Source: a virus
Direction: 5' to 3' (one strand)
DNA length: 44,997 nt
IMG/VR virus record: IMGVR_UViG_3300045988_058486
Location: 1 to 44,997 of that record
Shown here in pieces: positions 27,335 to 44,997 of the stretch (position 1 is its first letter; each line of letters starts with the position of its first letter). The notes under the pieces are model-generated. The model saw only the letters and a list, made by a program, of their open reading frames with translations. It did no database searches and was not told the DNA's origin. Both the position numbers and the translations under genes were made by a program.

Positions 27335-27371
27335 CGCTAAAACCTCCTAAATTCGGCCTTTCGCCGTGTGT

Positions 27372-27776: not shown

Positions 27777-27823
27777 GAGAAAGACTCGATAAGTAGAGAT
27801 AGCGATAAGTCATCAATCCTTTC

Positions 27824-27862
27824 TTGTAAAATAAAATGGGCCGTTTCTTTGCGAAACAGCCC
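27824..27862 (-). terminator. Intrinsic terminator immediately upstream of the major tail gene
   Basis: Minus strand reads GGGCTGTTTC-gcaaa-GAAACGGCCC followed by ATTTTATTTT. Confidence 0.5.
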
Positions 27863-27902
27863 ATCGGCTTTCATTCCGCCCTTGCGGAATGTTTTGCGTT
27901 AT

Positions 27903-28304: not shown

Positions 28305-28795
28305 CTAAATACCTCCTTGACAATTCTCGGCAGCTCCTGTTCAATGGCTTTTCTGGCTTCATACATGGGCATGGCCGGTGGATTACCGAAGGTATGACCG
28401 CCACCGGCACTTTTGGGGAGATACCATCCTTTTGGGTCATCCCAATGGCCTTTCCCGTCAGGATATGTACCAGGTCCCATGCCGAACTCCCCTGCCTCCG
28501 GGTGGCCATAGCCGTATGTCACGCCGGACCCAAACTCAATGAACAGAACGGATTCACCATCCGCCTTCACCTTGTAACCGTTCGGCAGTTCCTCTACGGT
28601 TACGTCTACGTCCTTTGGCCCGGTGTAGACGGCTCTGGAAAATCGAATAGAAGCCACCGTTGCGCCAAGAGCGGCCAGGCGCTCCGCCAATTCCCGTGCC
28701 TTTTCCTCCTGCCATTTCCGGTAAACCATCAATTCATCCTGAATCTTCTGGATGCCGGATTCGGACAGCGGAACGACGATTTTCTTTCGGCTCAC
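28301..28795 (-). CDS. Head-tail joining region protein
   Basis: Synteny; GTGA overlap with the upstream gene. Confidence 0.45.
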   Translation of the reverse strand: MSRKKIVVPLSESGIQKIQDELMVYRKWQEEKARELAERLAALGATVASIRFSRAVYTGPKDVDVTVEELPNGYKVKADGESVLFIEFGSGVTYGYGHPEAGEFGMGPGTYPDGKGHWDDPKGWYLPKSAGGGHTFGNPPAMPMYEARKAIEQELPRIVKEVFR

Positions 28796-29169
28796 GACAC
28801 GCTCACCTTCGTTACGGCATAGGCAATGATGTTCAGGGACTTTGCCACCCGTTTGACGATATAATCGTACAGGGGCTTTCCGTCCGCTTCCCGGTATTCC
28901 GGCTCTTTGTCCACGAACAGAACGGTATTCTCGTCAATTGGGCAGGACATATCGTCCGTTACGATGACCTTATCATACCCGGCGAGGTTGCCGAACTGCT
29001 CTACCTGAGAGGACCCGGATGCGGGGGAAACATTCGCCCTGAGCGCTACAGCAGGCTTATAAACGATGATTTCTTCACCCGTCTCATTGCCTTTTGCGTC
29101 TACCGCAGGGGCCTTGCGGTCGTACAGCAGATACCAGAGAGGCCGCTTGTTGCGTTCCATGATTTTCAT
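28792..29169 (-). CDS. Head closure / head-tail adaptor-position protein
   Basis: Synteny; ATGA overlap with the upstream gene. Confidence 0.45.
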   Translation of the reverse strand: MKIMERNKRPLWYLLYDRKAPAVDAKGNETGEEIIVYKPAVALRANVSPASGSSQVEQFGNLAGYDKVIVTDDMSCPIDENTVLFVDKEPEYREADGKPLYDYIVKRVAKSLNIIAYAVTKVSVS

Positions 29170-29489
29170 GTTGTTGCCTCAAACACACCGACCATCGGCA
29201 CAATCCCCCGAAGCATAGAGGCTGGAACATCTCCGTTCTCATATGTCCGGGAAACGCCATTCTCGGAGTGGGCGGATTCCCCTTCCGCTCCCCGCTTGTT
29301 CAGCAGGTACACAGCGATTTCGACCTGTGTCATGGCGTACTGGTCCGGGACAATGTTCTGCGTCGGGTCAAACGGATATGCCTTGCGGCAGATTTTGTGA
29401 CCGGCCAAAGCAAGGTAGGCGGAGACCACGGCGGTATCCGATTCACCCGCCATAGCTTTCACCATGGAGATTTTTTCTTCTTCCGGCAT
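29166..29489 (-). CDS. Head-tail connector (gp6-like) protein
   Basis: 107 aa immediately after the capsid gene; the AYLALAGHKI...VEIAVYLLNKRGAEG pattern. Confidence 0.6.
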   Translation of the reverse strand: MPEEEKISMVKAMAGESDTAVVSAYLALAGHKICRKAYPFDPTQNIVPDQYAMTQVEIAVYLLNKRGAEGESAHSENGVSRTYENGDVPASMLRGIVPMVGVFEATT

Positions 29490-29509
29490 GATTTCCGCCT
29501 CCTTTCAAT

Positions 29510-30529
29510 TTAGCCGGTTACGGCCTTGGTATTCACGGGGTTCTTTGCGTCGTTGGCAATGTAGACGCTCCGGCTGTATGTGGGAGCCGTGAAGGTCTGG
29601 GCAATGCCGGTGAACTTGGCATGATACCATTCGGGGCCGTGGTCCAGGCCAATCTGGCCGAACAGCTGGTACTGCTCACCTGCGCCGGTCTTGGCCAGCT
29701 GCTCCAGGAAGAAGTTGCCCTTTCCAGGAACCGGCTGATACACCGGGGAGATAACGTCCAGGTTCAGCAGCAGAGCCGTACCCTTGGGCAGGAACTCGCC
29801 CAGATACAGGTAGACAACGCCCAGAGGGGTCACAACGCTGGACAGTTTGATGCCGTTGATCTCACGGGCAGCAGGGATAACGGTCAGACCGTTCTGCACA
29901 GCGTCGGCGTTGATCTGGAACATGGTGGTAGCATCGCACCACAGAACAAGGCCGTCCTGCGGAGCGTTTGCCTCATAGACCTTCTTCACGCCGTCAGCAA
30001 TGTTCCACAGGCCGAGAGGCTTGCTGGCCATAGCGATGACGTTGCTTTCGATGGCCTCGGTCAGGCCACGGGTCTTGTTGACGGTGGCATCGGTGGTGGC
30101 CTTGTTGTAGGTGCCCTGCACAAAGGTAAACTCAATGTCCCGGTTCACCTTCTGCATCTTTGCCGCCACCTGGAAATCCAGTTCGTTCATGGGGTTTTCC
30201 TGCTGGTTGGCGATGTTGATACCGCTCAGGGTGCCCATGTTGGACTGTTTGGCATAGGACACGCCAACAGATTCATGGAAAATCTGGGTGACGTTGGTCT
30301 TCTGGGTCCGGGTGACAACGGTCGCCTCAGGGGCCGTCAAAGATGCGGTTTCGGAAATGGCGGGCTGTTCGCCGCCTGCGGTGGTGTACTCCTGACCGGT
30401 CACAAACTCAACGTGATTGGTCGTCTTTGCTCTGCCGCCGATGATGGAACTCAGCGGGCAGCGGGTGTTGCCCTTGTTGAACAACATCCCGGAGTAGTTC
30501 AGTACGCCGAAACTGGTTGCAATTGCCAT
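29510..30529 (-). CDS. Major capsid protein
   Basis: 339 aa, follows the scaffold gene, strong SD. The sequence pattern resembles the SU10/DUF5309-type capsid family. Confidence 0.85.
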   Translation of the reverse strand: MAIATSFGVLNYSGMLFNKGNTRCPLSSIIGGRAKTTNHVEFVTGQEYTTAGGEQPAISETASLTAPEATVVTRTQKTNVTQIFHESVGVSYAKQSNMGTLSGINIANQQENPMNELDFQVAAKMQKVNRDIEFTFVQGTYNKATTDATVNKTRGLTEAIESNVIAMASKPLGLWNIADGVKKVYEANAPQDGLVLWCDATTMFQINADAVQNGLTVIPAAREINGIKLSSVVTPLGVVYLYLGEFLPKGTALLLNLDVISPVYQPVPGKGNFFLEQLAKTGAGEQYQLFGQIGLDHGPEWYHAKFTGIAQTFTAPTYSRSVYIANDAKNPVNTKAVTG

Positions 30530-30546
30530 AGGTTTATCAGTCTCCT

Positions 30547-31125
30547 TTACTTGTTATTGGATGCTTCTGCCTCTGCCTGGAGGCGGGTGTAATACGCAGC
30601 GGCAGCATAATCGCCGCTACCCTGGGCCTCTGTGATTTTCTTGGAGTAATCCATACCGACACCGCCGGTCCCGCCGTCTGCGCCTCTGGGGGTCCCCTTC
30701 AACTTCTCGGCGACAACACGCTTGGCGTAGTCCGTCAAAAACTTCTGGTTGTTGGTGAAAACCGTGGTCATATCGCCGGATTCCATGGCCGCAGCGGTTT
30801 CATTCGCAAGGGCTTCATCATAGCCCTGGGCCACCAGCTTTGCCTTGTACTCTGAAACGGTCTTCTCCTTGCGAAGCCCAGCCAGCTCCTTTTCCATGGA
30901 TTCCAGCTTGTCAGCCTGCTCCTGCTGCTTGCGCTGCTCGTCGGTGAGAAGGGCGTTGTGCTTCCGCTTCCACTCTGCGGCATCGGAATTTGCCTTGGAC
31001 ACCGCAGCCTTCTGCTTTTCCAGTTCGGCTGCGTGATCCTCGTACTCGAAGCCCTCCAAAGCGGCCAGCTTCTGCTCAGGGGTCATTTCTGCGTAACCTT
31101 CAATTTTGGACGTGTCGATTTTCAT
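30547..31125 (-). CDS. Scaffolding protein
   Basis: Highly charged coiled-coil protein (EKQKAAV...EQRKQQEQADKLESMEKELAGLRKEK) directly upstream of the capsid gene. Confidence 0.8.
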   Translation of the reverse strand: MKIDTSKIEGYAEMTPEQKLAALEGFEYEDHAAELEKQKAAVSKANSDAAEWKRKHNALLTDEQRKQQEQADKLESMEKELAGLRKEKTVSEYKAKLVAQGYDEALANETAAAMESGDMTTVFTNNQKFLTDYAKRVVAEKLKGTPRGADGGTGGVGMDYSKKITEAQGSGDYAAAAYYTRLQAEAEASNNK

Positions 31126-31231
31126 GTTTTCTCCTCCTGCGTTTGGTCAGGCGGTTCCCTCCGCCATGTTTTCCGTTTTTATGGGTTGTCTCCCGTTTGC
31201 GTTTTTGATATGGCAGCTTCCCTGCTGCCGT

Positions 31232-31882
31232 TTATGCGGTAATCGCCAGCTTTGAGTTGGTTTTACCGATAAATTCTTTGATTTGCGTATATTCCCACCC
31301 GCAATCAACAAGTCCGCTCACAAGCCGCTCCATGGACTGTACGGCGGCAAGTTCTTCCGGCGTGAATGCGTCCCGTAGATTGTCAGTTGATGCAATCCCG
31401 TAATCCCGGCGAAGTTGCGCTGCATCTTTGCCAAACAATGTCTTATAGATGCAGTTCGTATAATTGGAATACGCATGGCCGTGCATCCGGTCATCCTCTT
31501 TGGACTGCTGTAGAGCCTTAGTCAATGCTTGACGTACAGCAATTCCTTTTTCACGCTCAATCAGCTTGCCTTGCAAGGCGGCTTCCATGGCGTTGAACTG
31601 CTTGATGTACGCTTCCTTGAACTTCATAGCGAGTTCTCCGGTGTACCCCATGACCAGAAGAGTAAAACCGTCTCTGGTCATTATGAACATAGGTTGCTTG
31701 TGGCCTTGCGAATTCTCATAGCTTGACTGTCCAAAATTGGACAGCCGGAATTCCTCACTGCATCCGAGTTCACGAATGTCCCTGAGAACGTGTTGATGCA
31801 GCTTTCCGAAGGTATCCGCCACATCAAGACTTGTAACTGTTGGCCGTTCCTGCTTCCCGATCTTTGCGATTTCTACGAACAT
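31232..31882 (-). CDS. Rha-family phage regulatory protein
   Basis: VTSLDVADTFGKLHQHVLRDIRELG...FIMTRDGFTLLVMGYTGELAMKFKEAYIKQFNAME. ATG at 31882 lies 9 nt after GAAAGGA. Confidence 0.8.
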   Translation of the reverse strand: MFVEIAKIGKQERPTVTSLDVADTFGKLHQHVLRDIRELGCSEEFRLSNFGQSSYENSQGHKQPMFIMTRDGFTLLVMGYTGELAMKFKEAYIKQFNAMEAALQGKLIEREKGIAVRQALTKALQQSKEDDRMHGHAYSNYTNCIYKTLFGKDAAQLRRDYGIASTDNLRDAFTPEELAAVQSMERLVSGLVDCGWEYTQIKEFIGKTNSKLAITA

Positions 31883-31945
31883 TGTTATCAATCCTTTCTG
31901 TTGATTAAAATGTTTTGGATTTCAGCAGCATCCCTGCTGCCGTTA

Positions 31946-32021
31946 TGGCGGGCGGAGCAGGATTCGAACCTGCGACGTCGTGATTAACAGTCACGCGCTC
32001 TACCAGCTGAGCTATCTACCC
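31946..32021 (-). tRNA. tRNA-Asn (anticodon GTT), 76 nt with encoded CCA
   Basis: Hand-folded cloverleaf: D arm GCTC/GAGC; anticodon arm CGTGA-CTGTTAA-TCACG; T arm GCAGG-TTCGAAT-CCTGC. The acceptor stem has one A-C mismatch. Confidence 0.85.
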
Positions 32022-32103
32022 ATTGGCCCCGGTCCGCTGTTGAGCAGTAGCGAAAAAACAAGCAGCGTGCCGACACATGGTGCTCTCTGTCCGGGTTTTT
32101 GAT

Positions 32104-32179
32104 TGGAGCCGCTGGACGGGGTCGAACCGCCACCCTGCTGGTTACAAATCAGCTGCACCACCTGTTGTGCTACAACGGC
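32104..32179 (-). tRNA. tRNA-Thr (anticodon TGT), 76 nt with encoded CCA
   Basis: Hand-folded cloverleaf: acceptor GCCGTTG/CAGCGGC; D arm GCAC/GTGC; anticodon loop TTTGTAA; T arm GGCGG-TTCGACC-CCGTC. There is a mismatch at 31-39. Confidence 0.8.
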
Positions 32180-32184
32180 GAATA

Positions 32185-32228
32185 AACAAAAAATGGGCTG
32201 CTGATACCATTCCTGGTATCAACAGCCC
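32185..32228 (-). terminator. Intrinsic terminator 5 nt upstream of tRNA-Thr
   Basis: Minus strand reads GGGCTGTTGATACCA-ggaa-TGGTATCAGCAGCCC followed by ATTTTTTGTTTATT. Confidence 0.6.
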
Positions 32229-32259
32229 ATCGGCTCTTAGCTGCCACTTCAGGCAACCG

Positions 32260-32388
32260 TTATCTATTTAAGCATTTTCGGGTAATTGCAATGACCTTGA
32301 TCTCTCCGTGCTCCACGCGCAATTCAACAACCTTCCCCTGCCGGATCGTGTTATTGATAAGCTGAATCTGTTCATCCGTCAGATTCAT
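32260..32388 (-). CDS. Small ORF (42 aa) overlapping the portal gene 3' end
   Basis: Hand translation gives MNLTDEQIQLINNTIRQGKVVELRVEHGEIKVIAITRKCLNR. Confidence 0.35.
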   Translation of the reverse strand: MNLTDEQIQLINNTIRQGKVVELRVEHGEIKVIAITRKCLNR

Positions 32389-33814
32389 GCGGCACGCCGG
32401 ATTGACTTCCTGTTCCACCGGATACACCCCCGTTTTGATTGGCCCGCTGAGCGGCTTCCCGCTCCTGCTGGGCCATATATTCCATACTCATGCGATAAGC
32501 AAGCTGCGGATCGGAAAAGAGGCCGCTGTGCGTGAACGCAAGCTCCGGCGCAATTTTCTCACACCCGAGCATCATGGTCAAAACGCTTGCCTTCTGCGCG
32601 ATGTTCTCATAATTTCGGCGGGTAAACCGGATTTCCAGAGCAGACAGCTTCAGGCTGAGACCGCCCAGGTCCCGGCAGATACGCAGGACCAGCTTCAGGA
32701 ACTCTTTTTCGGACCGCTTGAAAACAAGTTCGCTGTCCTTGGCACGGGCTTCCGCAGCGGACCAGCCGTCCCGCATGATGACCGCAGAACCGGTATCGCT
32801 TGTGGAGGTTCCACCGTTCCGGTTCGGCATCCCGCAGATGGTCAGGACGGCATTATACATACTGTCCACCAGCTTCTGAACCTGCTCCTGGTTCATGTCC
32901 TTGGTGATGAGGTCAACGTCAATGTTTCCGCCCGTGTCATTCGGAGGGACCATGATTGCACCCAGTTCCTTGAACTGATTGAACAGCGGCTCGTCAATAC
33001 GGCATCCAACGAACTTCCAGTAGGCCTGGACGAACTGCTCAATGCCGTCAATCCGGTTGCTTTCCGTCATGTTGATGGCATCCAGCAGCGGAATGACAAT
33101 CTCAAAAGAGCCAAGCCGGGCCTGATTCGCCGGGTATTCGATGATGGGGATTCCGAGAATCTGGTCTTCGCTGCGAACCACAGCCCAGGTATTCCACACC
33201 TCGAAATACCGGTCCTCCGTCCAGCAGGAGAATACAATGGTTCCGTCCTCTTTCTTGACGTATCGAACACCCATCATGGGCTTGTGACCCAGCCCGACAG
33301 AGTAGACCACAAACGCATACCGGGGGTCCAGCGTGAAGATTTCAAACGGGGCTTCATCCGCTTCTATGTCTGCGAGTGCATCCGGCAGGACCATTCTGTA
33401 TGCTGTACCGCAGATATTCCCCCAATCGACAAGCTCCTTGTCCTTTGCGGGCTTATCCTCCGACAGCATATAATCGTTCAGGGTCAGAACCTCGGAAGAA
33501 ATGCGCTCATCCCCGCCTCGGCTCACATACTGGACGGGTTCGCCAACCTGGTAGCCTGTTTTGAAGGAGACGATTTCGTTCGCCCGGTTCTCCACGACCA
33601 TGTTATTGATTTCCGGTCGAATGTCCTTTTCCCGGTATAGGATAGGTTGATCTCCACGGTAGTAGCGATAGAGGTAGTCAATCTCGGCCTGGTTGGCAAT
33701 CTGCACGTCCTGGGCCTTCCGCAGAACGTCAACGATGTTTCCCTCATTGATTTCGGGAACCTCGGTATAAATGACCTTCCGCCCAAACAGTTTTCTGCTT
33801 CCCGTATCGTACAC
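32372..33814 (-). CDS. Portal protein (SPP1 gp6-like)
   Basis: 480 aa; IDYLYRYYRGDQPI motif; sits downstream of TerL. GTG start. Confidence 0.9.
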   Translation of the reverse strand: MYDTGSRKLFGRKVIYTEVPEINEGNIVDVLRKAQDVQIANQAEIDYLYRYYRGDQPILYREKDIRPEINNMVVENRANEIVSFKTGYQVGEPVQYVSRGGDERISSEVLTLNDYMLSEDKPAKDKELVDWGNICGTAYRMVLPDALADIEADEAPFEIFTLDPRYAFVVYSVGLGHKPMMGVRYVKKEDGTIVFSCWTEDRYFEVWNTWAVVRSEDQILGIPIIEYPANQARLGSFEIVIPLLDAINMTESNRIDGIEQFVQAYWKFVGCRIDEPLFNQFKELGAIMVPPNDTGGNIDVDLITKDMNQEQVQKLVDSMYNAVLTICGMPNRNGGTSTSDTGSAVIMRDGWSAAEARAKDSELVFKRSEKEFLKLVLRICRDLGGLSLKLSALEIRFTRRNYENIAQKASVLTMMLGCEKIAPELAFTHSGLFSDPQLAYRMSMEYMAQQEREAAQRANQNGGVSGGTGSQSGVPHESDG

Positions 33815-33962
33815 CCCCCTATAGCTATTATTTCACGCATATAATTATACAAGTTTCATTTGGTTTGTCAAGTACTTTTATGCTATATAACCATTCGCAA
33901 CAAAATGGTTAAAACGGTCTGCTGAAAACCTCCACAACCGCCCCGTTTAGGCTTTTGGCGAA

Positions 33963-34547: not shown

Positions 34548-36194
34548 TCAAAATGGTCTTTTCATAACTTCCACCTTTGCAAGCCGGAAAGACTCCGAGT
34601 AATCAACCAGCATTGCGATACTGTCAACCACATCATCATTTTTGTTCTTTCCAGCCATTGTGTAGCTGCAAAGCATACTCATAGCCAAGCGGTACTCCTT
34701 GTCTCCCTTATACGCGCTTTCGTCCTTGAAAAGGAAATGTTCTTTCGCATATCCGGCGGCAATAATAATGCGGGTCTCCTTATTCGTTGTGGAGAATTTT
34801 GTGGTGATCTTCGTTCTCCCGCCTTCTTCCTTTACCCGCTTTTGCACATCTGCGGCAATCCGTCCACCGGCGGAATTGCTCTCGAAGCGTGCGGCCTGAA
34901 CCTTGTGCTTCAGCAGCTTTGCCACGAGCCTCGCTTCGACGATCTCCGGGTTGGAATTATCGCAGATAAAATCGTCGATGTAGTAATCATCCCCGTATTG
35001 ATACGCAATCGGCATGGCGCAGTAATCCGTTCCCCTATCTTTCGTATCGCAAACAGCGATAATTGCGTCCGGCTCCTGCTCTGGGAGGTCAAAATAGCGC
35101 CGCAGTTCATTTTCCTGATAGAGCAATCCCATTCTTTCCACTGGTTCGTTCATATACAGCGCCTTCCAGCTTACCGGGTCCATAATGTCCCGCTGCTCCT
35201 GATAGAATTTCGTAGAAAAACCAACTCCGAACTCATAGTCAAAATTGCTCTCATCGTTTTCGTCCATGGCCGGAATGCGAATAAATTTTGCCCTTGGATT
35301 ATTCTCATATTCCCTTTCCAGCCGCCCTATTACGTCATGTACGCTCCACCGTGTGGCAATATGCAGTTCCTTACACTTATCGCCGATTTTCCGTTGCCGA
35401 AGGTCCGTTGTATAGGTCTCCCACAGCTTGTCAAGGCGTTCTTTCGATAGGGCCACTTCGATACCGGACACCAAATCATCACAGTACAGTAGATTCGCAG
35501 CACGGTACAAACCGGCGTTTCCGGTGCCGATGGACGTGAACTCAAGTGTTTCAAAACGCTGCCGCTTGTCAAGGTCAATCCGGCAATCCTTGGCGTTCGT
35601 GCTTGACACCTGAACGGTCGGAAACACGTCCCGCCACAGATATTCCCCTTTGGGGTCAAACAGCCGTAGGCACTCGTCGTAAACGCCTCTAACAAAGGAA
35701 TTGGAATGGCTGCCGGTCAGATTTGGATTGTTTGGGTCCCTACCTGCAATCCAAGTCAAAAGAAAGATTGCAAGCGTACTCTTACCGACACCGGGTGGGA
35801 GGCTCACGGCCAGCAAGTCCAGTTTATCATCCCCGCAAAGTGCCTGCAATGCGTCCGCCACCGGTTTCAGCTGCTTCCGACGGGGCCGGTAGAACCGCTT
35901 CTTCGCCTGCCGGTCCAACTCCATGTACAGCAAGTAGCTATCAAAATCATACGGAGCGTCAAACAGCAGACACCGCCGCCACAACGTATAAAACTTCCCG
36001 ATCGCTTCTTCCGGGACCTTCTCCATCATTTCGGCGCATTTGTCCCGAAGCTGTTTGCTCTCCCTGTGGGCCGCAGCGAAGTCATCCCCGGCCCAATTCA
36101 TGCAGAGCGATAACAGGTCCTCATAAGCCGAAACGTCCGCAGGGCGGCGCTCCATGGCCCCCAGAATGGAAGTTGATATTTCCTGATAATTCAT
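34548..36194 (-). CDS. terL: Terminase large subunit
   Basis: Walker A LPPGVGKST, 548 aa, upstream of the portal gene. ATG lies 6 nt after GGGAGGG. Confidence 0.9.
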   Translation of the reverse strand: MNYQEISTSILGAMERRPADVSAYEDLLSLCMNWAGDDFAAAHRESKQLRDKCAEMMEKVPEEAIGKFYTLWRRCLLFDAPYDFDSYLLYMELDRQAKKRFYRPRRKQLKPVADALQALCGDDKLDLLAVSLPPGVGKSTLAIFLLTWIAGRDPNNPNLTGSHSNSFVRGVYDECLRLFDPKGEYLWRDVFPTVQVSSTNAKDCRIDLDKRQRFETLEFTSIGTGNAGLYRAANLLYCDDLVSGIEVALSKERLDKLWETYTTDLRQRKIGDKCKELHIATRWSVHDVIGRLEREYENNPRAKFIRIPAMDENDESNFDYEFGVGFSTKFYQEQRDIMDPVSWKALYMNEPVERMGLLYQENELRRYFDLPEQEPDAIIAVCDTKDRGTDYCAMPIAYQYGDDYYIDDFICDNSNPEIVEARLVAKLLKHKVQAARFESNSAGGRIAADVQKRVKEEGGRTKITTKFSTTNKETRIIIAAGYAKEHFLFKDESAYKGDKEYRLAMSMLCSYTMAGKNKNDDVVDSIAMLVDYSESFRLAKVEVMKRPF

Positions 36195-36288
36195 GGCGTT
36201 CCCTCCCGATAAAGTAAAAAGGGCCACCCGTGCTTTCGCACAAGCAGCCCTTCGGCTAAGGCTCCCACCTATGGGAGCCTTTATTCAT

Positions 36289-36534
36289 TTACTGTGGTAT
36301 CCCCATGTGGTACAGCTCGTCACACGACAAATCAATGTCCTCATTCCAACTGATTCCATACCCGCCGGGGTCAACCTGAACCGTGTCAAATAGCGCTGGC
36401 TTTTTCAGAGCGAGGAACACCGGAAACCTCGGAAACAGCTGCGAAACATCATATCGTCTGACTTCTCCGTTGACGAACTCCACTCGAAGAAACAGCCCAC
36501 CGTCCGGCTTCACATTTGCGACCTTGTGGAACAT
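36289..36534 (-). CDS. DUF2442-family protein
   Basis: MFHKVANVKPDGGLFLRVEFVNGEVRRYDV...VDPGGYGISWNEDIDLSCDELY is the typical DUF2442 pattern. Confidence 0.7.
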   Translation of the reverse strand: MFHKVANVKPDGGLFLRVEFVNGEVRRYDVSQLFPRFPVFLALKKPALFDTVQVDPGGYGISWNEDIDLSCDELYHMGIPQ

Positions 36535-36544
36535 CAAGACCACC

Positions 36545-36799
36545 TCATTCCAACGGTTCCACCTTTTCAAAATTCTGCGTTTCCCATATTTCCATCAGTT
36601 TGTCTTGGTGCATGACTGCCCATTCCATCACAAGCAGTTTCGCTTTTGGCGGCAAACTGCCGTCGATCATTTTCAGCGTTCGAATATCAAATGCTGAGGC
36701 GTAACTGCCGTAGTAAGCATGAAAATGGGGCGGGTTGTGTTCACCCTGACGAAAATACATCTTAATGGATATGCCGTAAAATGTGGATATTATCGGCAT
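36545..36799 (-). CDS. DUF4160-family protein
   Basis: MPIISTFYGISIKMYFRQGEHNPPHFHAYYG is the hallmark DUF4160 N-terminus. Confidence 0.75.
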   Translation of the reverse strand: MPIISTFYGISIKMYFRQGEHNPPHFHAYYGSYASAFDIRTLKMIDGSLPPKAKLLVMEWAVMHQDKLMEIWETQNFEKVEPLE

Positions 36800-36840
36800 T
36801 TTCGTTACTCCCTTCGGCAATCCCTCCACCCTTGCGGAGG

Positions 36841-37161
36841 TTATTTATTTGTCGCTTTCCTGGCCCGACACTCCCGGATGCGCTGGGCATTCGCCGTCTG
36901 GCTCGGCTCTATCTGCATTCCCCGTTCGTATGGGCTGTTTGCGTTTACGCAGGAGTATGAGATGCCCAGCATCCCGCAAATCTCCTTCTGCGAACGTCCA
37001 TCTTTCAGAAGCGCCCCGATTCGCCTGGTCATCGCCGTCTCAATTTCGCCATGCGTAATCAGGCATTTCCGAACGGTCCCTTCCGATATATCCAGCTCCC
37101 GTGCCGTCTCCCTGATGCTCAGGCGCTTTCTGTATTCCTTCAAAACATCTTCGGTAGTCAT
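36841..37161 (-). CDS. Double-HTH DNA-binding protein (possible second small-terminase-like or regulatory protein)
   Basis: SIRETARELDISEGTVRKCL and SQKEICGMLGISYSCV. ATG follows AGGAGG. Confidence 0.5.
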   Translation of the reverse strand: MTTEDVLKEYRKRLSIRETARELDISEGTVRKCLITHGEIETAMTRRIGALLKDGRSQKEICGMLGISYSCVNANSPYERGMQIEPSQTANAQRIRECRARKATNK

Positions 37162-37246
37162 GGCTGGCCTCCTATTTGTGGTGGAGTAGTCTTTAATCCC
37201 CACTCCCCCGTAAAGGAGAGGGACTGAAGTGGAATGCGGGATGGGG

Positions 37247-37933
37247 CTAGAAATTCGCCATTATTTCATGGTATCGCTGTGATTTCTTGGACAACTCTTC
37301 TTCCTGATTGAGTCCGTTTGTGTACCTCGCAATGACGCGGACATTGGGGTTCCTTTTTGTGGTTATTGTTGCAGCGGTTGCCGAACGGCCAGCAGACGCT
37401 CCAATCAACGCTCCAACATCACCAGCAACAGCCCCGCCAAGAATCGCCCCTCCGATAGAAGGAGTATTCCTTGTTATTGCGGAATATGTGTATATGTCCG
37501 ACCCGTCCTGAACCTTCACCGTGTCAAAGCAGATTTTCCCAGGTTCTATGTTGGCTCCGCATTCAGGGTAGAGTGAAAGAAACATCCTGATAAATGCATC
37601 CCATACACGTTCTTCCGCAATCGGCTGGTGTTCTCCGACACATACACCAGTTGCTCTTGACGCTCTCAAAATAGCCCGAACCCCATTCTTTCCAACGTAG
37701 AAGTGGCATTTGCTCTTTAGAATCGTATGATATGCAGGCTTCCAGCCTTTAGGGATTCGGAATCTACCTACAAAATTACTGTCCGGGCCTTTCGTGCTTC
37801 CTCCGATTTGAAAGATTGTATTCTTGATCGCAGTTGCAGTTTCTTCCGGTGGCATATTCGTTGTGAAGGTAAATAGCATACTACTCATGTACTCAGCGTC
37901 TCCTCCCTTTACGGCCTCTTGGGCCTTTCCCAT
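37247..37933 (-). CDS. Hypothetical protein with a C-terminal glycine-zipper segment
   Basis: GGAILGGAVAGDVGALIGASAG. Low-GC DNA. Confidence 0.5.
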   Translation of the reverse strand: MGKAQEAVKGGDAEYMSSMLFTFTTNMPPEETATAIKNTIFQIGGSTKGPDSNFVGRFRIPKGWKPAYHTILKSKCHFYVGKNGVRAILRASRATGVCVGEHQPIAEERVWDAFIRMFLSLYPECGANIEPGKICFDTVKVQDGSDIYTYSAITRNTPSIGGAILGGAVAGDVGALIGASAGRSATAATITTKRNPNVRVIARYTNGLNQEEELSKKSQRYHEIMANF

Positions 37934-37997
37934 CGTAGTCCTTTAAGAGTTCTCGAAGGACAAATGCCGGTAGCATGATAATCAGTAGCCATTCCAT
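37893..37997 (-). CDS. 34-aa hydrophobic/basic micropeptide ORF
   Basis: MEWLLIIMLPAFVLRELLKDYDGKGPRGRKGRRR. ATG lies 7 nt after AGGAGG and 3 nt after the recombinase stop. Confidence 0.3.
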   Translation of the reverse strand: MEWLLIIMLPAFVLRELLKDYDGKGPRGRKGRRR

Positions 37998-37999
37998 GT

Positions 38000-38776
38000 T
38001 TATTCCTCCTTCAAAATTGGTTCATGCTGGCCAGGAACCCACTCAGCTTCTTTGTTCGACCGTTTCCCATACCGGTACATCCCCTGATAGACCTTCTTGT
38101 TCTCGTAAATCGTCTGAATGGTGCTGATGATAAATGGCTTCCCGCTGCGGTTTACCTTTCCTTCCTGGTTCAGTGCTTCCGCAACCGCCTGATAGGTGAA
38201 ACCTTCGCCATCCTTCAAGCGGAATATCTCTCGGACAACCTCAGCCTCCTCTGGCTCAATGACCATCTGATGGTTTTCAGCTTTGTAGCCAAACGGAGTT
38301 CTACCCCCGCTGTATCCGCCGTTTGCGGACTTTACCGCTCGGCCTCCGCTGGTTCGCTTCGTGATGTTATTCCGTTCCTGCTCCGCCACAAACAGCATCA
38401 GAGCCTTGTAAACATTCCCAAGTCCGGTATCATCATTGACAACTTCCTCTGTGGCGCTTACGAGTTTCATTCCCCGCTTTTCCAGCAGCATCATGAAGTA
38501 ATAGTACAGCTTGATGTCTCTTGCCATACGGTCAGACTTGGCAACTATCACTGCCTCTACAGGGGGATTCTTGATCTCACCGTACAGAATTGCGTCCAGC
38601 TGCGGCCGGTTCTCTTTAACCCCGCTCTCGCCCCGGTCAATGTACCAGTCCATAATGGACATATCGTGCTTTTCACAATATCCGGCAATAATTTCCTTCT
38701 GAGATTCAATGCCGAACTTATCATCCATAGCCTGAGCATCTGTGCTGACCCGGACGTAGGCAATTACGTTTTTCAT
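38000..38776 (-). CDS. Serine recombinase lacking the Zn-ribbon/coiled-coil domain (258 aa)
   Basis: YVRVSTDAQ catalytic motif, SDRMARD, and a recombinase domain. The ORF stops 5 aa after the HEPI motif. Confidence 0.8.
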   Translation of the reverse strand: MKNVIAYVRVSTDAQAMDDKFGIESQKEIIAGYCEKHDMSIMDWYIDRGESGVKENRPQLDAILYGEIKNPPVEAVIVAKSDRMARDIKLYYYFMMLLEKRGMKLVSATEEVVNDDTGLGNVYKALMLFVAEQERNNITKRTSGGRAVKSANGGYSGGRTPFGYKAENHQMVIEPEEAEVVREIFRLKDGEGFTYQAVAEALNQEGKVNRSGKPFIISTIQTIYENKKVYQGMYRYGKRSNKEAEWVPGQHEPILKEE

Positions 38777-38800
38777 ATTGTAGCCTCCGCTGCATTTGAT

Positions 38801-38849
38801 TTACGGTAACATATTATCATAATTACGGCTTAATGTCAATACCGTAATT
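38801..38849 (-). promoter_or_regulatory. Promoter of the recombinase gene with three TTACGG-type sites
   Basis: Minus strand reads AATTACGG..TTGACA-ttaaGCCGTAATTatga-TAATAT-g-TTACCGTAA. Confidence 0.5.
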
Positions 38850-38904
38850 AAAAAAATATGGATTTTTATTTTTGGTTAATTTTTAGAAATAGCTTTACGC
38901 ATCT

Positions 38905-38924
38905 GCGCCCGAAGGGCGCTTTTT
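38905..38924 (+). terminator. Intrinsic-terminator-like hairpin
   Basis: GCGCCC-gaa-GGGCGC followed by TTTTT. Confidence 0.45.
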
Positions 38925-39028
38925 ATAAAATTCATTTTGGGCCTTTTTTATTTTTGCGGGATTTTTTGAATGAAGACATAAGCAGCCGGTTTCCTTTGCC
39001 TGTTCTTTCTTAAATGTAGGCCATTTTA

Positions 39029-39079
39029 TTATCCAAAAATGAGTTCCCCACCTTCATCGTGGATAAATTATTATCCACC
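39029..39079. promoter_or_regulatory. Three TTATCCA(C/A) DnaA-box-like elements, two forming a palindrome
   Basis: TTATCCAAA (39029), TTATCCACG on the minus strand (39058-39066) and TTATCCACC (39071). Confidence 0.3.
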
Positions 39080-39250
39080 TTTTTGGGGAAAGGGGCTTTT
39101 TATTTGTTTGGGTGGTAGAGGGGGTTACTGCCCGGCCCTTGGAAGCCCCCATTCCCCCGCCCCCCGTGCGGTCAAGATCGGCCCGGCCTCAGAACCGGCC
39201 AACCGTGGCCCGGCTCCTGGCGTGCGTAAAATCGGGAAAAGTAAAAATAT

Positions 39251-39313
39251 TTACGGTAAATCTTGAATTTCCTATTGACATTTACGGCAAATCATGATAT
39301 AGTATCACCGTAA
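39251..39313 (+). promoter_or_regulatory. Rightward promoter with three TTACGG-type sites
   Basis: TTACGGTAA..TTGACA-tTTACGGCaaatcaTGa-TATAGT-atcaCCGTAA. Confidence 0.5.
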
Positions 39314-39343
39314 AGCAAAAGCAAGGCGGGAGGAAGTGAGGAA

Positions 39344-39445
39344 ATGAAAATCAAACGCTTAATAAATAGGCTGGTCCAGTGGCTGAAAGCCCACGGGATA
39401 ACCGCCGAACAGATCGCCGATTGCATCGACTACATCACAAAATGA
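39344..39445 (+). CDS. 33-aa ORF (MKIKRLINRLVQWLKAHGITAEQIADCIDYITK)
   Basis: ATG follows GGGAGGAAGTGAGG. First ORF after the promoter. Confidence 0.4.
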   Translation: MKIKRLINRLVQWLKAHGITAEQIADCIDYITK

Positions 39446-39578
39446 AAAGGCCGTCACGGTGCTAGCGTGACAGCCTAAACAAAACCAATAGACCATGGGA
39501 ACGGGCCTCCCGCCTGGCCTGCTCCCATTGTAACCGGCAGGCGGGGAAAAGTCAAGCGAAAATTTAGGAGGAATTACA

Positions 39579-40166
39579 ATGGCTAATCTTTACAATCTCG
39601 ACGGCATCGTCACCGAACTAAGCAAGCGCAACGCGCAGGACCGCGCAATCCTGGCGGCATGGGAAGCGGTAACCTTCCCCACCAAGAAGGATGGAAAGCC
39701 CTTCGCACGGATGGAGCGGAACATCAGCGGTGCGAAGTACGCCGCCGAGGCGTACACCCTGCAGCCGGGTGAAATGGCGGTAACCGTCGCCACCTGGTGC
39801 GCCGAATATGGCGTTGGCTACGTCTCCGACAATTTCCACGCCTACACCACCGCCGACCGCATGACGGACGACCAGAAGGCCAAGCCCGAAAACCTGCTTC
39901 CGAAGGTCCCCGGCCTCAAACAGATTTACTGTTTTGACCTGGACGACATCAAATCCGCCGTTGTGGCCCGGTGTGGCCAACTGCGGGAGCGGATCGCCAA
40001 CCGCGAAAACCAGATCAAGCAAGCGCACGCGGCCTATAGTACATTCTACGCGGCTTATGGGGCCGCCTTGGATCAGCTCGCAGCCATGACAAACAAGGAC
40101 TCCGACGGTGCGACGCTCTACCATGCTATTCTGGACACCGTCACCGCGCGGTATCCGCATTGCTGA
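39579..40166 (+). CDS. Hypothetical protein (195 aa), GC-rich
   Basis: ATG lies 7 nt after AGGAGG; strong GC3 bias. Confidence 0.6.
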   Translation: MANLYNLDGIVTELSKRNAQDRAILAAWEAVTFPTKKDGKPFARMERNISGAKYAAEAYTLQPGEMAVTVATWCAEYGVGYVSDNFHAYTTADRMTDDQKAKPENLLPKVPGLKQIYCFDLDDIKSAVVARCGQLRERIANRENQIKQAHAAYSTFYAAYGAALDQLAAMTNKDSDGATLYHAILDTVTARYPHC

Positions 40167-40182
40167 GAGGGGGCGCGTTAAT

Positions 40183-40389
40183 ATGGCAAGATATATTTGC
40201 ACCGTGCGCAGCCCGTCCACCTATGCGCGGGAGTACACCGTTACGACATCCAGCGCATACAAGGCCGCGCAGGACTTCGGGCGGGGTGAGGGCGGGGAGG
40301 TCGTCGAGATCGTCCGCCCCCGCTCCGGGCGTGTCGTGTCCGCTGCTATGTGGTCCGCTGAGGACCGGCGTTATTATCGGGTATATTGA
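40183..40389 (+). CDS. Hypothetical protein (68 aa)
   Basis: Starts MARYICTVRSPSTYAREYTV; a purine-rich GAGAGGGGG lies upstream. Confidence 0.5.
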   Translation: MARYICTVRSPSTYAREYTVTTSSAYKAAQDFGRGEGGEVVEIVRPRSGRVVSAAMWSAEDRRYYRVY

Positions 40390-40760
40390 TGGGGGGTGCG
40401 GATATGCTTATAACGGATATCGCATGGGCGTCTGTATGCGTCGGAAAAACATCGATAACAGTTAAGCGGCCCGACGGCAAGACTTGCGGAATGGTGCGGG
40501 GCGTGTCCCGTGTGTGCGATTTGCCGCCCCGTATCATGGCCGATATATGGCCCACTGTCAAGCGGTCCGGCGTGTGGGGTACTGCCTACAGTAGGCGGCT
40601 TTTGTATGTGTCCGGGGTGGTGTACTACCTTCACAACCTGCACGGGCTAGAGACACTCCGCAAGTGTGACCCCGGGTGCGCCGCAAAGCTGGACGGATAC
40701 GCAGAAGCAGCGGCGGCCGCCGGTGTCGTGGTTATCCCCTGCGATATAATCAGCGGCTAA
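40389..40760 (+). CDS. Hypothetical protein (about 118-123 aa; a better SD serves the ATG at 40404)
   Basis: In-frame ATGs at 40389 and 40404. GGGGGTG lies 6 nt before 40404. Confidence 0.45.
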   Translation: MGGADMLITDIAWASVCVGKTSITVKRPDGKTCGMVRGVSRVCDLPPRIMADIWPTVKRSGVWGTAYSRRLLYVSGVVYYLHNLHGLETLRKCDPGCAAKLDGYAEAAAAAGVVVIPCDIISG

Positions 40761-40764
40761 CCCC

Positions 40765-40793
40765 TTGACAGCCCGCCGGGCGTGGGCTATAAT
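40765..40793 (+). promoter_or_regulatory. Perfect-consensus sigma-A promoter
   Basis: TTGACA, 17 nt, TATAAT. Confidence 0.6.
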
Positions 40794-40821
40794 CTGTAAT
40801 GCAAGGAGGTGCAATGCTGCT

Positions 40822-40887
40822 ATGTACTGGCTGTTTTTCCTGTTAATCGTTTGTCCGATCATCTTTTTCCATGAGCTTCTCAAGTGA
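40822..40887 (+). CDS. 21-aa hydrophobic micropeptide (MYWLFFLLIVCPIIFFHELLK), type I toxin-like
   Basis: AAGGAGG lies 12 nt upstream. A 10-aa ORF (MLLCTGCFSC) starts at 40814 in another frame. Confidence 0.35.
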   Translation: MYWLFFLLIVCPIIFFHELLK

Positions 40888-40890
40888 CTT

Positions 40891-40924
40891 CGCCGCCTCC
40901 GGTTATTCCGGGGGCGGTGCTTTT
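40891..40924 (+). terminator. Intrinsic terminator 1
   Basis: CCGCCTCCGG-ttatt-CCGGGGGCGG followed by tgcTTTT. Confidence 0.6.
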
Positions 40925-40937
40925 ATATTCCTTCATG

Positions 40938-40969
40938 CTCCCGCCGTCGTGGCGGGGGCTTTTCTTTTT
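40938..40969 (+). terminator. Intrinsic terminator 2 (tandem)
   Basis: CTCCCGCC-gtcgt-GGCGGGGG followed by cTTTTCTTTTT. Confidence 0.55.
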
Positions 40970-41296
40970 CCTGCCTCGTGCCGTGTGGCGTCCTCTGCGC
41001 CTCTCTACGGCGTTTTTCTTTCCGGGTATATACTTTCATTCCCTTTTGCATTTCTTCCAGTGTGCGCCCCGTGTGGCGTTCGTGCGGTTATCCCAGCACA
41101 TTTCCGCCGGGTATATGGTGCTTTCAGCGGCTCTATATCGCACGTTTGCGCCGCTCAGGTATGCCCATAGCCGCCCCATATTGCAGCCCGTGCCGGGCCT
41201 CTGCAGCGCTGCACCGCTCAGGCCGTGGACCGGCTGCGCCCTGGCACCCGCCGCCCCGAAGGGGCCACGCCTCAGGCCGTCCCGGTTTCGGAGTGC

Positions 41297-41340
41297 AAAA
41301 AGCCGCCGATCTCCATTTCGGGGACCGGCGGTGAGTTTTT
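41297..41340. terminator. Bidirectional intrinsic terminator in non-coding DNA downstream of terS
   Basis: AAAAA-GCCGCCGaTCTCC-atttc-GGGGAcCGGCGGT-gag-TTTTT. Confidence 0.5.
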
Positions 41341-41507
41341 GCCTGAGCCTGTGGCAAAGTCGCTGGGGGTAAAATCAAGGCCCCGCCAACCGTTTTCACG
41401 GTCAGCGGGGCTGAATTATAGTCGCTCCAGCTCTGCGGACAATTCCGCAATTTTTCTTCTGGTTGATTCTTTTTTTGCGCTGCAACAAAGTCGAAAGTCG
41501 ATGAGGC

Positions 41508-42077
41508 TTATTCGCCCTTTTCGCCGTCAACTATAGTCGCTCCGCTCCCTCTCACGTCCTCCAGGTACTTCTTCCGCAGGTCCTCCGCCGAAGCTGCTTC
41601 GCCAAGCGGAGAGTCGGGCTTCAAAATCACTTCCTGCTGGTCCGTGTACCCCATGTTATTCTTCATCAAAAAGATTCCAGCCGTCGGATGAATTTTCCAG
41701 TTTTGCATATAATCCTCCATCTGGGCGTTAATAACATTTCGCGCCATTTTGATGGTGTCACGTGTAGAGTCGCTTAATTTCCTCCCCTCCGGGCTATTGG
41801 TGCACCATCTCCACAGGGTCATGCGGTCCACGCCGAATGCAAGCGCCAGCCCTGCGAACGTCGGTTTCATATCGTTTTTTTTGCACAGGGTAAAATAGTC
41901 GATGCAGCGTTGCTGCACTGCTTCCAGGCTGTCCATGTTGGGCTTGGGCCACTTCATGATTTCCAGGGAGTGGTTGATGTACTTGGTGTTGTCGCCGGGT
42001 TCCAGGTCAGGGATTTGATAGGGTTTTCTTTTGGGCTTTTCGGTGTTGGTCTGAGCGACCTCTTTTTTCTGCGCCAT
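41508..42077 (-). CDS. terS: Terminase small subunit
   Basis: CIDYFTLCKKNDMKPTFAGLALAFGVDRMTLWRW and AGIFLMKNNMGYTDQQEV match the common Firmicutes-phage TerS pattern. ATG follows AAAGGAGG. Confidence 0.8.
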   Translation of the reverse strand: MAQKKEVAQTNTEKPKRKPYQIPDLEPGDNTKYINHSLEIMKWPKPNMDSLEAVQQRCIDYFTLCKKNDMKPTFAGLALAFGVDRMTLWRWCTNSPEGRKLSDSTRDTIKMARNVINAQMEDYMQNWKIHPTAGIFLMKNNMGYTDQQEVILKPDSPLGEAASAEDLRKKYLEDVRGSGATIVDGEKGE

Positions 42078-44437: not shown

Positions 44438-44997
44438 TGTACTCTACTGCCTCCTGTCGGTTGACGAAAAAGTGGATTCCTGCGGCGCATTCCAGGAAAC
44501 GGTTATCGCAGAAATCCGGGACGGAAACGGTCTCTCCGACCCTGTATAAAAACTCCTCGTCTCTGTCGCTGGTTACGACATCAACATCAGCCTTAGTCCC
44601 ATCCGGATTCTGGATTTCCAATACGATAGCCTTATCGCACCGGCACTTCCTGCCAGCGGACGAGCTGCGTTTTGCATCTTCTGGGATGAACAGCTTTACG
44701 ATATATCCACGGGCTTTTTTCCAGCCGGTAAAAGAGCCGTTATCCGGGCAAGCCATCGGGACATACGGGATGTTTTTTGCCCAAATCAGGTCGGCCCTGG
44801 ACAGGCTGGCCCCGGACAGGTTGGCCCAGGACAGGTTGGCCCCGGACAGGTTGGCCCCGGACAGGTCGGCCCCGGACAGGTCGGCCCCGAACAGGTCGGC
44901 CCAGGACAGGTTGGCCCCGGACAGGCTGGCCCTGGACAAGTTGGCCCTGGACAGGCTGGCCCCGGACAGGTTGGCCCCGGACAGGTTGGCCCCGGAC
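44430..44997 (-). CDS. Pentapeptide-repeat protein, C-terminal part (repeats plus a roughly 115-aa non-repeat domain); joined with 1-300 it gives about 270 aa
   Basis: [23 protein letters not shown] repeats are followed by [21 protein letters not shown]...[19 protein letters not shown]. The frame is continuous across the junction (44942 to 44430 is 171 codons). Confidence 0.85.
44943..44997. repeat. Terminal direct repeat (copy of nt 1-55)
   Basis: Exact 55/55 identity read directly. Confidence 0.8.

Follow-up and report, generated by a model that had tools for sequence, protein, structure and literature searches.

The object of this study is the interval between the genes for the small and large terminase subunits, terS and terL, in a phage genome of 44,997 nucleotides (IMG/VR record IMGVR_UViG_3300045988_058486, positions 1 to 44,997). 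This whole stretch, hereafter the window, corresponds to a circular assembly of the ~45-kb phage genome, opened within a 15-nt tandem repeat found at both ends. An initial annotation, made from the sequence letters, had described the interval as a mosaic island of 5.2 kb that separates two terminase genes lying on the same strand. We found that both genes are indeed on the same strand and that 5313 bp lie between them. The terS product matches PF16677 (GP3_package) with an E-value of 1.1e-12 and 48.5 bits, above the gathering cut-off of 29.4, and two PHROG families of small terminases also match it, including phrog_606 (E = 1.8e-11); hence, its reading as a small terminase stands in profile searches. 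The terL product matches phrog_38 (E = 3.8e-61) and PF22530. Within the open reading frame (ORF) 34548-36227, the start codon is the ATG at 36194, preceded by a ribosome-binding site (GGGAGGG); the gene callers of identical assemblies also use this start. The intervening features are listed in Table 1 and form three predicted transcription units. Two are on the plus strand: unit 1 consists of a near-consensus promoter, the leader ORF mp33, orf195, orf68 and orf118, and unit 2 of a promoter, a micropeptide gene and a double terminator. Unit 3, on the minus strand, comprises a promoter homologous to that of unit 1, followed by genes for a serine recombinase, a micropeptide, a glycine-zipper protein, a helix-turn-helix (HTH) protein and a DhiT/DhiA-like pair.

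Table 1. Features of the terS-terL interval and its two anchors, from terS to terL (window coordinates, nt).
Feature	Position	Strand	Description
terS	41508-42077	-	Small terminase subunit, 189 aa; left anchor of the locus
Terminator-like hairpin	41380-41411	-	14 pairs and T-rich tail; ~100 nt past the terS stop codon
Conserved spacer	40960-41379	.	Non-coding, ~420 bp, between two convergent terminators
Self-contained unit	40765-40959	+	Promoter, micropeptide, two terminator hairpins
Cassette genes	39579-40760	+	orf195 (39579-40166), orf68 (40183-40389), orf118 (40404-40760)
mp33	39344-39445	+	33-aa leader ORF of the cassette, MKIKRLINRLVQWLKAHGITAEQIADCIDYITK
Cassette promoter	39249-39323	+	TTGACA-17-TATAGT with TG; three TTACGG/CCGTAA half-sites; arm 2 of inverted repeat
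G-rich 12-mer	39153-39164	-	GGGGGCGGGGGA; in the 430-bp spacer between the divergent promoters
Recombinase promoter	38791-38860	-	TTGACA-17-TAATAT with TG; three TTACGG/CCGTAA half-sites; arm 1 of inverted repeat
Short serine recombinase	38000-38776	-	258 aa; catalytic and Recombinase domains
Second micropeptide copy	37893-37997	-	34 aa, MEWLLIIMLPAFVLRELLKDYDGKGPRGRKGRRR; ribosome-binding site in the 37992-38038 junction
orf213	37247-37888	-	C-terminal glycine-zipper segment; weak precomputed match to PF27000 (PH_gly_zipper)
HTH protein	36841-37161	-	106 aa; two helix-turn-helix motifs
DhiT/DhiA-like pair	36289-36799	-	DUF4160 toxin (36545-36799), then DUF2442 antitoxin (36289-36534)
Two hairpins	36218-36281	-	Directly before terL
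terL	34548-36194	-	Large terminase subunit, 548 aa; right anchor of the locus

Relatives of the window were retrieved with TerL as the query, which gave 80 viral contigs and 26 loci from bacterial genomes or metagenome-assembled genomes (handles with the prefix L below). Gap statistics were taken from the 62 viral contigs with enough upstream sequence and from 14 genome-derived relatives carrying both genes. One locus with 97% identity to the terL 3' end (L121) is a 465-nt remnant and is uninformative. A terS homologue is present in all 62 viral contigs, and in every one of them terS and terL are separated by a gap, which ranges from 2806 to 6437 bp with a median of 4298 bp. The same separation is seen in the 14 genome-derived relatives, whose TerL proteins are 52-81% identical. 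The comparison that had been proposed as a check for terS abutting terL was run over 62 viral-contig and 14 genome relatives, and the two genes are never adjacent; nor does any of these relatives show an empty site. Since the gap occurs in every relative with both genes, the separation is an old, fixed trait of the lineage and not an event in this phage. The genome-derived relatives are assigned to Oscillospiraceae, Eubacteriaceae, Erysipelotrichaceae, Faecalibacterium, Catenibacterium and Acutalibacteraceae, the closest genome matches being Oscillospiraceae. In prophages residing on bacterial contigs of 89-224 kb, terS, the gap and terL are contiguous, which places the attachment site (attP) outside the gap.

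The content of the gap is hypervariable. In blastn comparisons the island interior is covered by at most 14 of the 80 loci, whereas terL is covered in all 80, and window positions 39400-41500 are essentially unmatched. A near-identity search of the island against GenBank phages returned no match. Clustering the gap ORFs of the 62 relatives together with those of the window resulted in 155 ORF clusters. The sister phages L090, L092 and L094-L096 were found through exact-protein look-ups. They are 88-98% identical to the window over 36199-37161, 37440-39587 and 40384-41643, and L090, L092 and L094 have different DNA at 39588-40383 and 37162-37439. In the first of these replacements, the break on the left lies inside the coding sequence of orf195, 9 nt from its start, and that on the right coincides with the orf68/orf118 boundary, so that whole genes have been swapped behind a conserved promoter, leader and ribosome-binding site. 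Between flanks that are ~98% identical, the sisters here encode a protein of 185-196 aa with a C-terminal AcrIC5 domain (E = 2.6e-20), a domain found only in the positional equivalents of L090, L092, L094, L095 and L096. The sister phages also carry an additional 110-aa gene between the hairpins and terL (at 36195-36198). The locus thus occupies a fixed position between core genes, and its content differs among close relatives with conserved flanks, as in a hotspot. Altogether, a gap in every relative with both genes and its hypervariable content bear out the term accretion hotspot, one of the two options put forward initially.

Both edges of the locus are conserved: terS and the terminator that follows it bound one side, and the covarying hairpin that precedes terL bounds the other. 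Between them, the interior is exchanged gene by gene between short conserved junctions, which consist of the promoter plus leader, a ribosome-binding-site junction and terminators. Three junctions were seen again where the surrounding sequence is otherwise unrelated, namely 37992-38038, the terminator at 38902-38967 and the hairpin-bearing stretch 36199-36291. The first of them, 47 nt long, is made up of the recombinase C-terminus and the ribosome-binding site of the next gene, and is 85-88% identical in 13 relatives (including L004-L006, L011, L019-L021, L023, L032, L034, L035 and L051). We found no att-like direct repeats bracketing the island or its blocks, and the cassette boundaries share no common motif beyond ordinary promoter, ribosome-binding-site or terminator sequence. 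The pattern of exchange fits recombination at conserved boundary sequences rather than insertion of one mobile element.

Against this background of turnover, several components of the locus are conserved. The short serine recombinase matches PF00239 (Resolvase, E = 2.3e-27) and PF07508 (Recombinase, E = 5.1e-14), and its best NCBIfam match is CcrB (E = 1.7e-36, residues 2-240). The catalytic motifs YVRVSTDAQ and SDRMARD are intact (Ser-12 being counted from Met-1 of MKNVIAYVRVSTDAQ). The protein ends ...GQHEPILKEE, at the exact point where large serine recombinases continue into the zinc ribbon, and it has neither a zinc ribbon (no PF13408 match) nor a coiled coil. It does not have the architecture of small serine recombinases either, that is, a catalytic domain with a short C-terminal HTH, because its C-terminal part is a Recombinase domain. 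This short form had been taken for a truncated gene. However, among the best 150 homologues from 1.84 billion cluster representatives, most measure 240-270 aa, and the first full-length recombinases, of 460-630 aa, come in at about E = 1e-33; the retrieved members of the clade stop at the same G.HEPIL-type motif or a few residues later. Compared with orthologues that are 84-90% identical, the rate of nonsynonymous substitution (dN) is 0.05-0.10 and that of synonymous substitution (dS) is saturated; in three pairs with unsaturated dS, dN/dS is 0.02-0.05. Moreover, 43 of the 62 relatives have a serine recombinase ORF of at least 180 aa at this position of the gap, encoded on the terL strand, either as the short type, in lineages that are 35-49% mutually identical, or as a form of 190-202 aa with Resolvase as the only Pfam domain. 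The dN/dS values, the length of the clade and its recurrence across relatives therefore indicate, at the sequence level, that the recombinase is no relic but belongs to the conserved parts of the locus and is under strong purifying selection. Short recombinases that are 44-56% identical also lie just upstream of terL in the genome-derived relatives L099, L101, L107 and L111 and in L123, and more distant ones are found in other contexts, again with divergent genes upstream. Two family members, P0187 and P0222, lack the catalytic serine. No published description of such short serine recombinases, with catalytic and Recombinase domains, was found in the searchable literature, which is absence of evidence only. 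The phage carries a second serine recombinase in its lysogeny module, a complete large one at 10807-12630 (+) with Resolvase, Recombinase and zinc-ribbon (PF13408) domains, adjoined by HTH_3 repressor-like proteins at 9463-9876 (+) and 10278-10973 (+).

Upstream of the recombinase gene, two promoters diverge. Together with that of unit 2, they make up the three near-consensus promoters recognized initially, located at 40765 (12/12), 39275 (11/12, with TG) and 38839 (10/12, with TG). The divergent pair forms an inverted repeat of 51 nt with 73% identity (38791-38841 versus 39273-39323), whose arms are homologous promoters pointing away from each other, and the six TTACGG/CCGTAA half-sites cluster in the two arms. 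These are the only notable repeats behind the description of the non-coding DNA as repeat-rich, which we could not uphold since no tandem arrays are present. The sequence 39249-39323 is 81-88% conserved in relatives with the same recombinase type. The half-site differs slightly between recombinase lineages (TTACGG, TTACAG, TTACGA); as a pointer to the binding factor this co-variation was only partial, and it was dropped. At ~70 nt, the conserved element around the G-rich 12-mer core also includes GGGGTTAGCCCC, and no consensus RNA fold was found for it. Of the 62 relatives, 47 have a single copy of GGGGGCGGGGGA or of GGGGGAGGGGGA, which differs from it by one base; this copy always lies in the gap, on the terL-sense strand, and none lies outside the gap. 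The element could be a protein-binding, packaging or Chi-like site. An inversion switch operating at the 51-nt repeat was considered and rejected, as the 12-mer between the arms points the same way in all 47 loci that have it. Matches in opposite orientation occur only between distant lineages (63-83% identity), with no recent inversions, and no other long inverted repeats are present in the window, for instance around the tail genes.

A third recurrent component is a family of hydrophobic micropeptides of 20-35 aa with the consensus M-x-x-LLIILFP-[IAL]-[FVM]-VL-[IA]-E-[LI]-[LM]-K, sometimes followed by a basic tail (RGRKGRRR). They are predicted to form a transmembrane helix with a central proline and end in E-L-L-K. 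The family is present in 43 of the 62 relatives. In the 20-kb loci searched, all 46 pattern matches lie inside the gap, which makes up 21% of the searched sequence, and none lies outside; in many relatives the micropeptide gene directly precedes the terL hairpins. The window has two copies, one on each strand (Table 1; 40822-40887 on the plus strand). No micropeptide matches Pfam at E-values up to 10. With their transmembrane helix, central proline and charged tail, they presumably resemble type I toxins of the Fst/Ldr kind; an Fst-like toxin reading was set aside as it has no profile support.

The plus-strand copy, MYWLFFLLIVCPIIFFHELLK, is a hydrophobic peptide of 21 aa encoded in unit 2, behind a promoter that matches the consensus at 12 of 12 positions (40765-40793) and before two predicted hairpins (40891-40919 and 40937-40959). 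Its frame is kept in L090 and L094 through synonymous and conservative changes, while an overlapping frame, MLLCTGCFSC, is broken in L094. The spacer beyond these hairpins belongs to an aligned block with a mean column identity of 93% among the window, L090, L092 and L094. An ORF of 162 aa that gene callers place at 40884-41372 was dismissed as non-coding, given that the sisters have indels of 5 and 1 nt there, which break the frame; an indel of 6 nt is present as well. The spacer has no Rfam match, and the fold z-scores over 40960-41420 are modest, -2.2 on the plus and -3.5 on the minus strand, and are attributed to the terminators. The terminator-like hairpin next to terS is kept in the sister phages. 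Near it, a 15-nt direct repeat, AAYTATAGTCGCTCC, at 41414-41428 and 41529-41543 brackets the terS 3' end, and ~36 nt just after the first copy are missing in L090 and L092, which resembles an indel footprint. Ends of contigs accumulate immediately upstream of terS and close to the spacer; a reading of these ends as genome termini was rejected because a single metagenome contributed 9 of the 10 such contigs and breakpoints due to strain variation account for the clustering just as well.

The genes of unit 1 form the opposite-strand operon initially proposed (mp33, orf195, orf68 and orf118; 39344-40760, +). mp33 is called as a gene in every assembly of the window phage and keeps 91% identity in L090. 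It is followed by a hairpin at 39448-39476, which scores as a minus-strand terminator. A promoter-like site on that strand (39555-39527, 10/12) lies before the same hairpin, and this predicted pair (39555-39448) would yield an RNA of ~75 nt antisense to the mp33-orf195 leader. orf195 is a real gene as judged from its conservation, with 166 homologues of 181-209 aa. Its structure model reaches a predicted local distance difference test (pLDDT) score of 93.7 and has no structural analogue in PDB or BFVD. Profile searches found no Acr homologue among orf195, orf68 and orf118, and PHROG scans of the recurrent cassette proteins from relatives returned almost nothing. The PADLOC and anti-defence profile scans suggested at the outset gave no defence or anti-defence match among the cassette proteins of the window, and PADLOC and NCBIfam scans of all island proteins detected nothing besides DhiT and the recombinase.

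On the minus strand, orf213 has no direct Pfam match; with its glycine-zipper segment it is probably a membrane protein, and its C-terminal half is replaced in the sister phages. The HTH protein, situated 0.65 kb from terL, is supported by Pfam as initially read (HTH_23, E = 2.2e-9; HTH_28, E = 2.9e-9; Sigma70_r4_2, E = 2e-7). The close relatives L008 and L090-L096 encode it too, and L098 has a version with 61% identity. Neither the glycine-zipper nor the HTH protein matches a defence or anti-defence profile. The DUF4160/DUF2442 pair was also correctly called, with Pfam E-values of 1.7e-20 and 1.8e-13, respectively. Such a pair, dhiTA of Dickeya dadantii, is an experimentally validated toxin-antitoxin system with the toxin gene first (PMC8198452). 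The window pair has the same order, DUF4160 then DUF2442, closely juxtaposed with the toxin gene first, but it is a candidate by sequence with a score below the cut-off, is borne by a phage and belongs to a Firmicute host.

The interval is also distinguished by its composition and by its density of predicted signals. Both extremes of G+C content among the 1.85-kb windows of the genome lie inside the island, the lowest starting at 37251 and the highest at 39601 (genome mean 53.4%; mean across windows 53.3%, standard deviation 2.8). The compositional shift noted in the initial annotation is therefore real, although the values of ~44% and over 60% estimated by eye overstate it somewhat: computed values are 46.2% over 37247-39100 and 57.7% over 39101-41507, and only the stretch 39579-40760 reaches 60.2%. 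Between 36195 and 41507 there are 14 promoter-like sites, against 4.5±2.0 in shuffled sequences, and 19 predicted terminator-like sites, against 6.7±2.6, a roughly 3-fold enrichment of consensus matches of both kinds. Neither excess is seen in the structural region 14000-33900 (~20 kb). Rfam at its gathering threshold reports only two tRNAs, both outside the island, and at E up to 1 only two sub-threshold small-RNA matches within it, which fall on the terminators at 40890-40974.

Transcription into terL would meet two hairpins. Hairpin 2 (36218-36253; 16 pairs, a GAAA loop and a T-run) ends 24 nt before the terL ATG. Over 10 diverged relatives, 7 of its 16 pairs show compensatory changes, and its G-U pairs fit the terL-sense strand only. 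A gene of ~110-170 aa with an HEIIH (HExxH) motif, here called c1, is translationally coupled to terL in 28 relatives; its carriers (L002-L032, L037-L050 and L090) have it directly upstream of terL, the window lacks it, and it matches only phrog_1233, of unknown function. In relatives with c1, the hairpin element precedes c1-terL. Similar hairpins occur elsewhere in the late gene cluster of the window: those at 36218-36253, 32192-32231 and 27835-27865 (-) share the stem base GAWGGGCTG...CAGCCCWTT followed by a T-run. These common stems suggest that the hairpins are related gated terminators and that antitermination controls the late genes. From the recombinase promoter to the terL hairpin, the minus strand has no predicted terminator, and the sole strong promoter on this strand (38839) is predicted to drive a unit that ends at the covarying hairpin. 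The initial annotation had suggested that terL expression probably depends on promoters inside the island; judged from these signals, read-through by antitermination would fit at least as well, and a need to pass the gate hairpin and the similar ones downstream would favour processive antitermination over an island promoter as the driver of terL. Further downstream, a sigma-70 promoter that matches the consensus at 12 of 12 positions (TTGACA-16-TATAAT) lies at 33844-33871 (-), between a 190-aa ORF downstream of terL and the portal gene.

Taking these results together, we consider it probable (roughly 70%) that a large family of temperate siphoviruses infecting gut Clostridia keeps an accessory-gene locus, in the manner of a hotspot or 'moron' platform, at one fixed position between terS and terL throughout the lineage. 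In such a locus, unit 1 would be an anti-defence slot of the acr (anti-CRISPR) type, because the sister phages carry the AcrIC5-domain protein exactly there, and unit 3 would carry genes for lysogen maintenance or exclusion. The accessory genes would be expressed from their own promoters, the two divergent ones being co-regulated through their common TTACGG half-sites. The leading candidate for the co-regulator may be the recombinase itself, by analogy with Tn3 resolvase at res; mp33 and the prophage repressor are others. The terminators would insulate the accessory genes from the packaging and late genes, and late transcription might reach terL by read-through of the gate hairpin and of its downstream relatives. 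Mosaicism would arise when co-infecting phages, or a phage and a prophage, recombine through the homologous sequence of the conserved junctions. Loci with acr genes are typically strong-promoter operons with fast turnover, and the cassette fits this description, but without a recognisable aca repressor.

Several observations weigh against this account. orf195, orf68, orf118 and mp33 belong to no Pfam, PHROG, PADLOC or NCBIfam family, and the cassette proteins gave no match to an HTH family of the aca type. The AcrIC5-domain protein of the sisters and orf195 share no homology, so that the three cassette genes are candidate anti-defence genes by position alone. The match of the DUF4160 protein to the NCBIfam model toxin_DhiT (E = 8e-25, 87.3 bits) stays below the equivalog cut-off of 100. 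The promoters and terminators are consensus matches only, and the near-constant half-site means that the regulator may be a shared factor other than the recombinase. In addition, a pure dumping ground would not explain why the recombinase, the micropeptide and the 12-mer are each kept in ~70% of the relatives.

This last point leads to the idea that the conserved backbone, that is, the recombinase, the operator-bearing divergent promoters, the 12-mer and the micropeptide, is a working device rather than passive cargo. The recombinase could then be a resolvase-like repressor of the anti-defence cassette, or a catalyst of cassette turnover or of a DNA switch. Its strong purifying selection and intact catalytic motifs agree with such a role, as do its preservation at one site in lineages sharing only 35-90% identity and the divergent gene set found upstream of short recombinases even in unrelated contexts. 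The 51-nt promoter pair with its six half-sites adjoins the recombinase gene, and the single-copy 12-mer always has the same orientation. However, that same constancy in 47 of 47 loci, with opposite-orientation matches confined to distant lineages, speaks against a switch by inversion, and no motif beyond ordinary expression signals is common to the cassette boundaries. Moreover, loci that lack a full recombinase (L002, L003, L013 and L031) still retain the 12-mer and cassettes, and the family members P0187 and P0222 lack the catalytic serine. We therefore regard a working device of this kind as unlikely. A bolder version makes the gap a dedicated platform, in which the ~250-aa recombinase clade, the G-rich site, the micropeptide and the gated terminator jointly control or renew anti-defence cassettes; it is a long shot. 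If true, it would couple cassette expression to the packaging switch, as an integron-like or resolvase-repressor device in the terminase module.

The remaining alternatives question either the origin or the existence of the gap. The other option offered initially was an integrated mobile or satellite-like element, taken here as a single unit that entered the packaging module by means of its serine recombinase. A serine recombinase gene inside the island, the heterogeneous composition and the island's own predicted promoters and terminators could be read in this way. Yet relatives with TerL identities as low as 52% all have the gap, no direct repeats flank it, and it is never absent or present as a unit, single genes being swapped instead. 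It remains contiguous in prophages, and the recombinase sits at the same place in 43 of the 62 relatives regardless of cargo. Furthermore, this protein lacks the zinc-ribbon and coiled-coil domains of serine integrases, a complete integrase being encoded elsewhere (10807-12630), and exact copies of orf195 and of the recombinase occur only on phage-sized contigs of up to 50 kb, in the same context. A single-element origin is accordingly hardly tenable. The separation could also be an annotation illusion if the real TerS were the HTH protein or, in relatives, c1. The HTH protein has a size like that of small terminases and lies 0.65 kb upstream of terL, c1 is coupled to terL in 28 relatives, and terS has no significant match to solved small-terminase sequences (best 2ao9, E = 0.74). 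Nevertheless, terS scores well above the PF16677 gathering threshold, matches two small-terminase families in PHROG and is found in every relative, whereas the HTH protein is restricted to close relatives and c1, with its HExxH motif and its single match to phrog_1233, is absent from the window. Judged by sequence, a misidentified terS is unlikely, because terS is the only small DNA-binding protein conserved across the family, and we give an illusory gap very little credence.

As an accessory-gene locus, the interval can be compared with several known systems. Hotspots of anti-phage systems in P2 and P4 phages are accessory-gene hotspots at fixed positions (PMC9122126). Our locus shares with these and with lambdoid morons a fixed position between core genes, cargo that varies among close relatives, a promoter and terminator per unit (predicted here) and cargo of a putative defence, anti-defence or toxin-antitoxin kind. 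It differs in that it splits the terminase genes, has a conserved internal backbone and carries mostly cargo without a family. A precedent is the subfamily vSUBFAM7 of Ca. Heliusvirales, in which variable auxiliary genes lie between TerS and TerL (bioRxiv 10.64898/2026.05.11.724261). [quoted passage not shown] The locus described here is the same kind of thing in an apparently different, uncharacterised lineage. Its distinguishing feature is the conserved backbone, made up of the short recombinase clade, the micropeptide, the G-rich site and the gated terminator.

At the level of single components, the cassette shares with acr-aca loci a strong promoter with operator-like inverted repeats, small and rapidly exchanged genes and, in the same slot of the sisters, an AcrIC5-domain protein. 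Unlike these loci, the cassette of the window has no Acr homologue or aca-type HTH gene, and a 33-aa leader ORF precedes its genes. The recombinase gene lies beside a divergent promoter region with repeated half-sites, as does that of the Tn3/gamma-delta resolvase at res, and by analogy this arrangement would permit autoregulation and repression of the divergent genes. The DNA-binding part of the window protein is, however, the Recombinase domain of large serine recombinases rather than a small HTH, and no second resolution site is known. Finally, the catalytic and Recombinase domains are shared with large serine recombinases such as phage integrases, CcrA/B and XisF, but the window protein, and with it the whole ~250-aa clade, ends where the zinc ribbon and coiled coil of those proteins begin.

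These findings have practical consequences. Across a widespread family of phages from gut Clostridia, terS and terL never adjoin, and annotation pipelines that expect terS beside terL will mislabel genes. The locus is a compact and delimited place to seek new anti-defence and exclusion genes, with at least 155 ORF clusters, most of them without a family. It also offers three conserved components for functional study, namely the short recombinase clade, the family of 20-35-aa micropeptides and the single-copy 12-mer.

Some features outside the interval deserve mention. The tandem repeat at the ends of the window (1-289 and 44703-44991) is the cut point of the circular assembly; it probably lies inside a gene for a pentapeptide-repeat protein that identical assemblies contain. 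In the structural module, two tRNA genes, at 31949-32021 (-) and 32107-32179 (-), are situated between the portal and pRha-like genes. Lastly, the gene at 8156-8737 (-) encodes a protein with a Spo0A C-terminal DNA-binding domain (E = 1.2e-23), which hints at interference with the sporulation control of the host.

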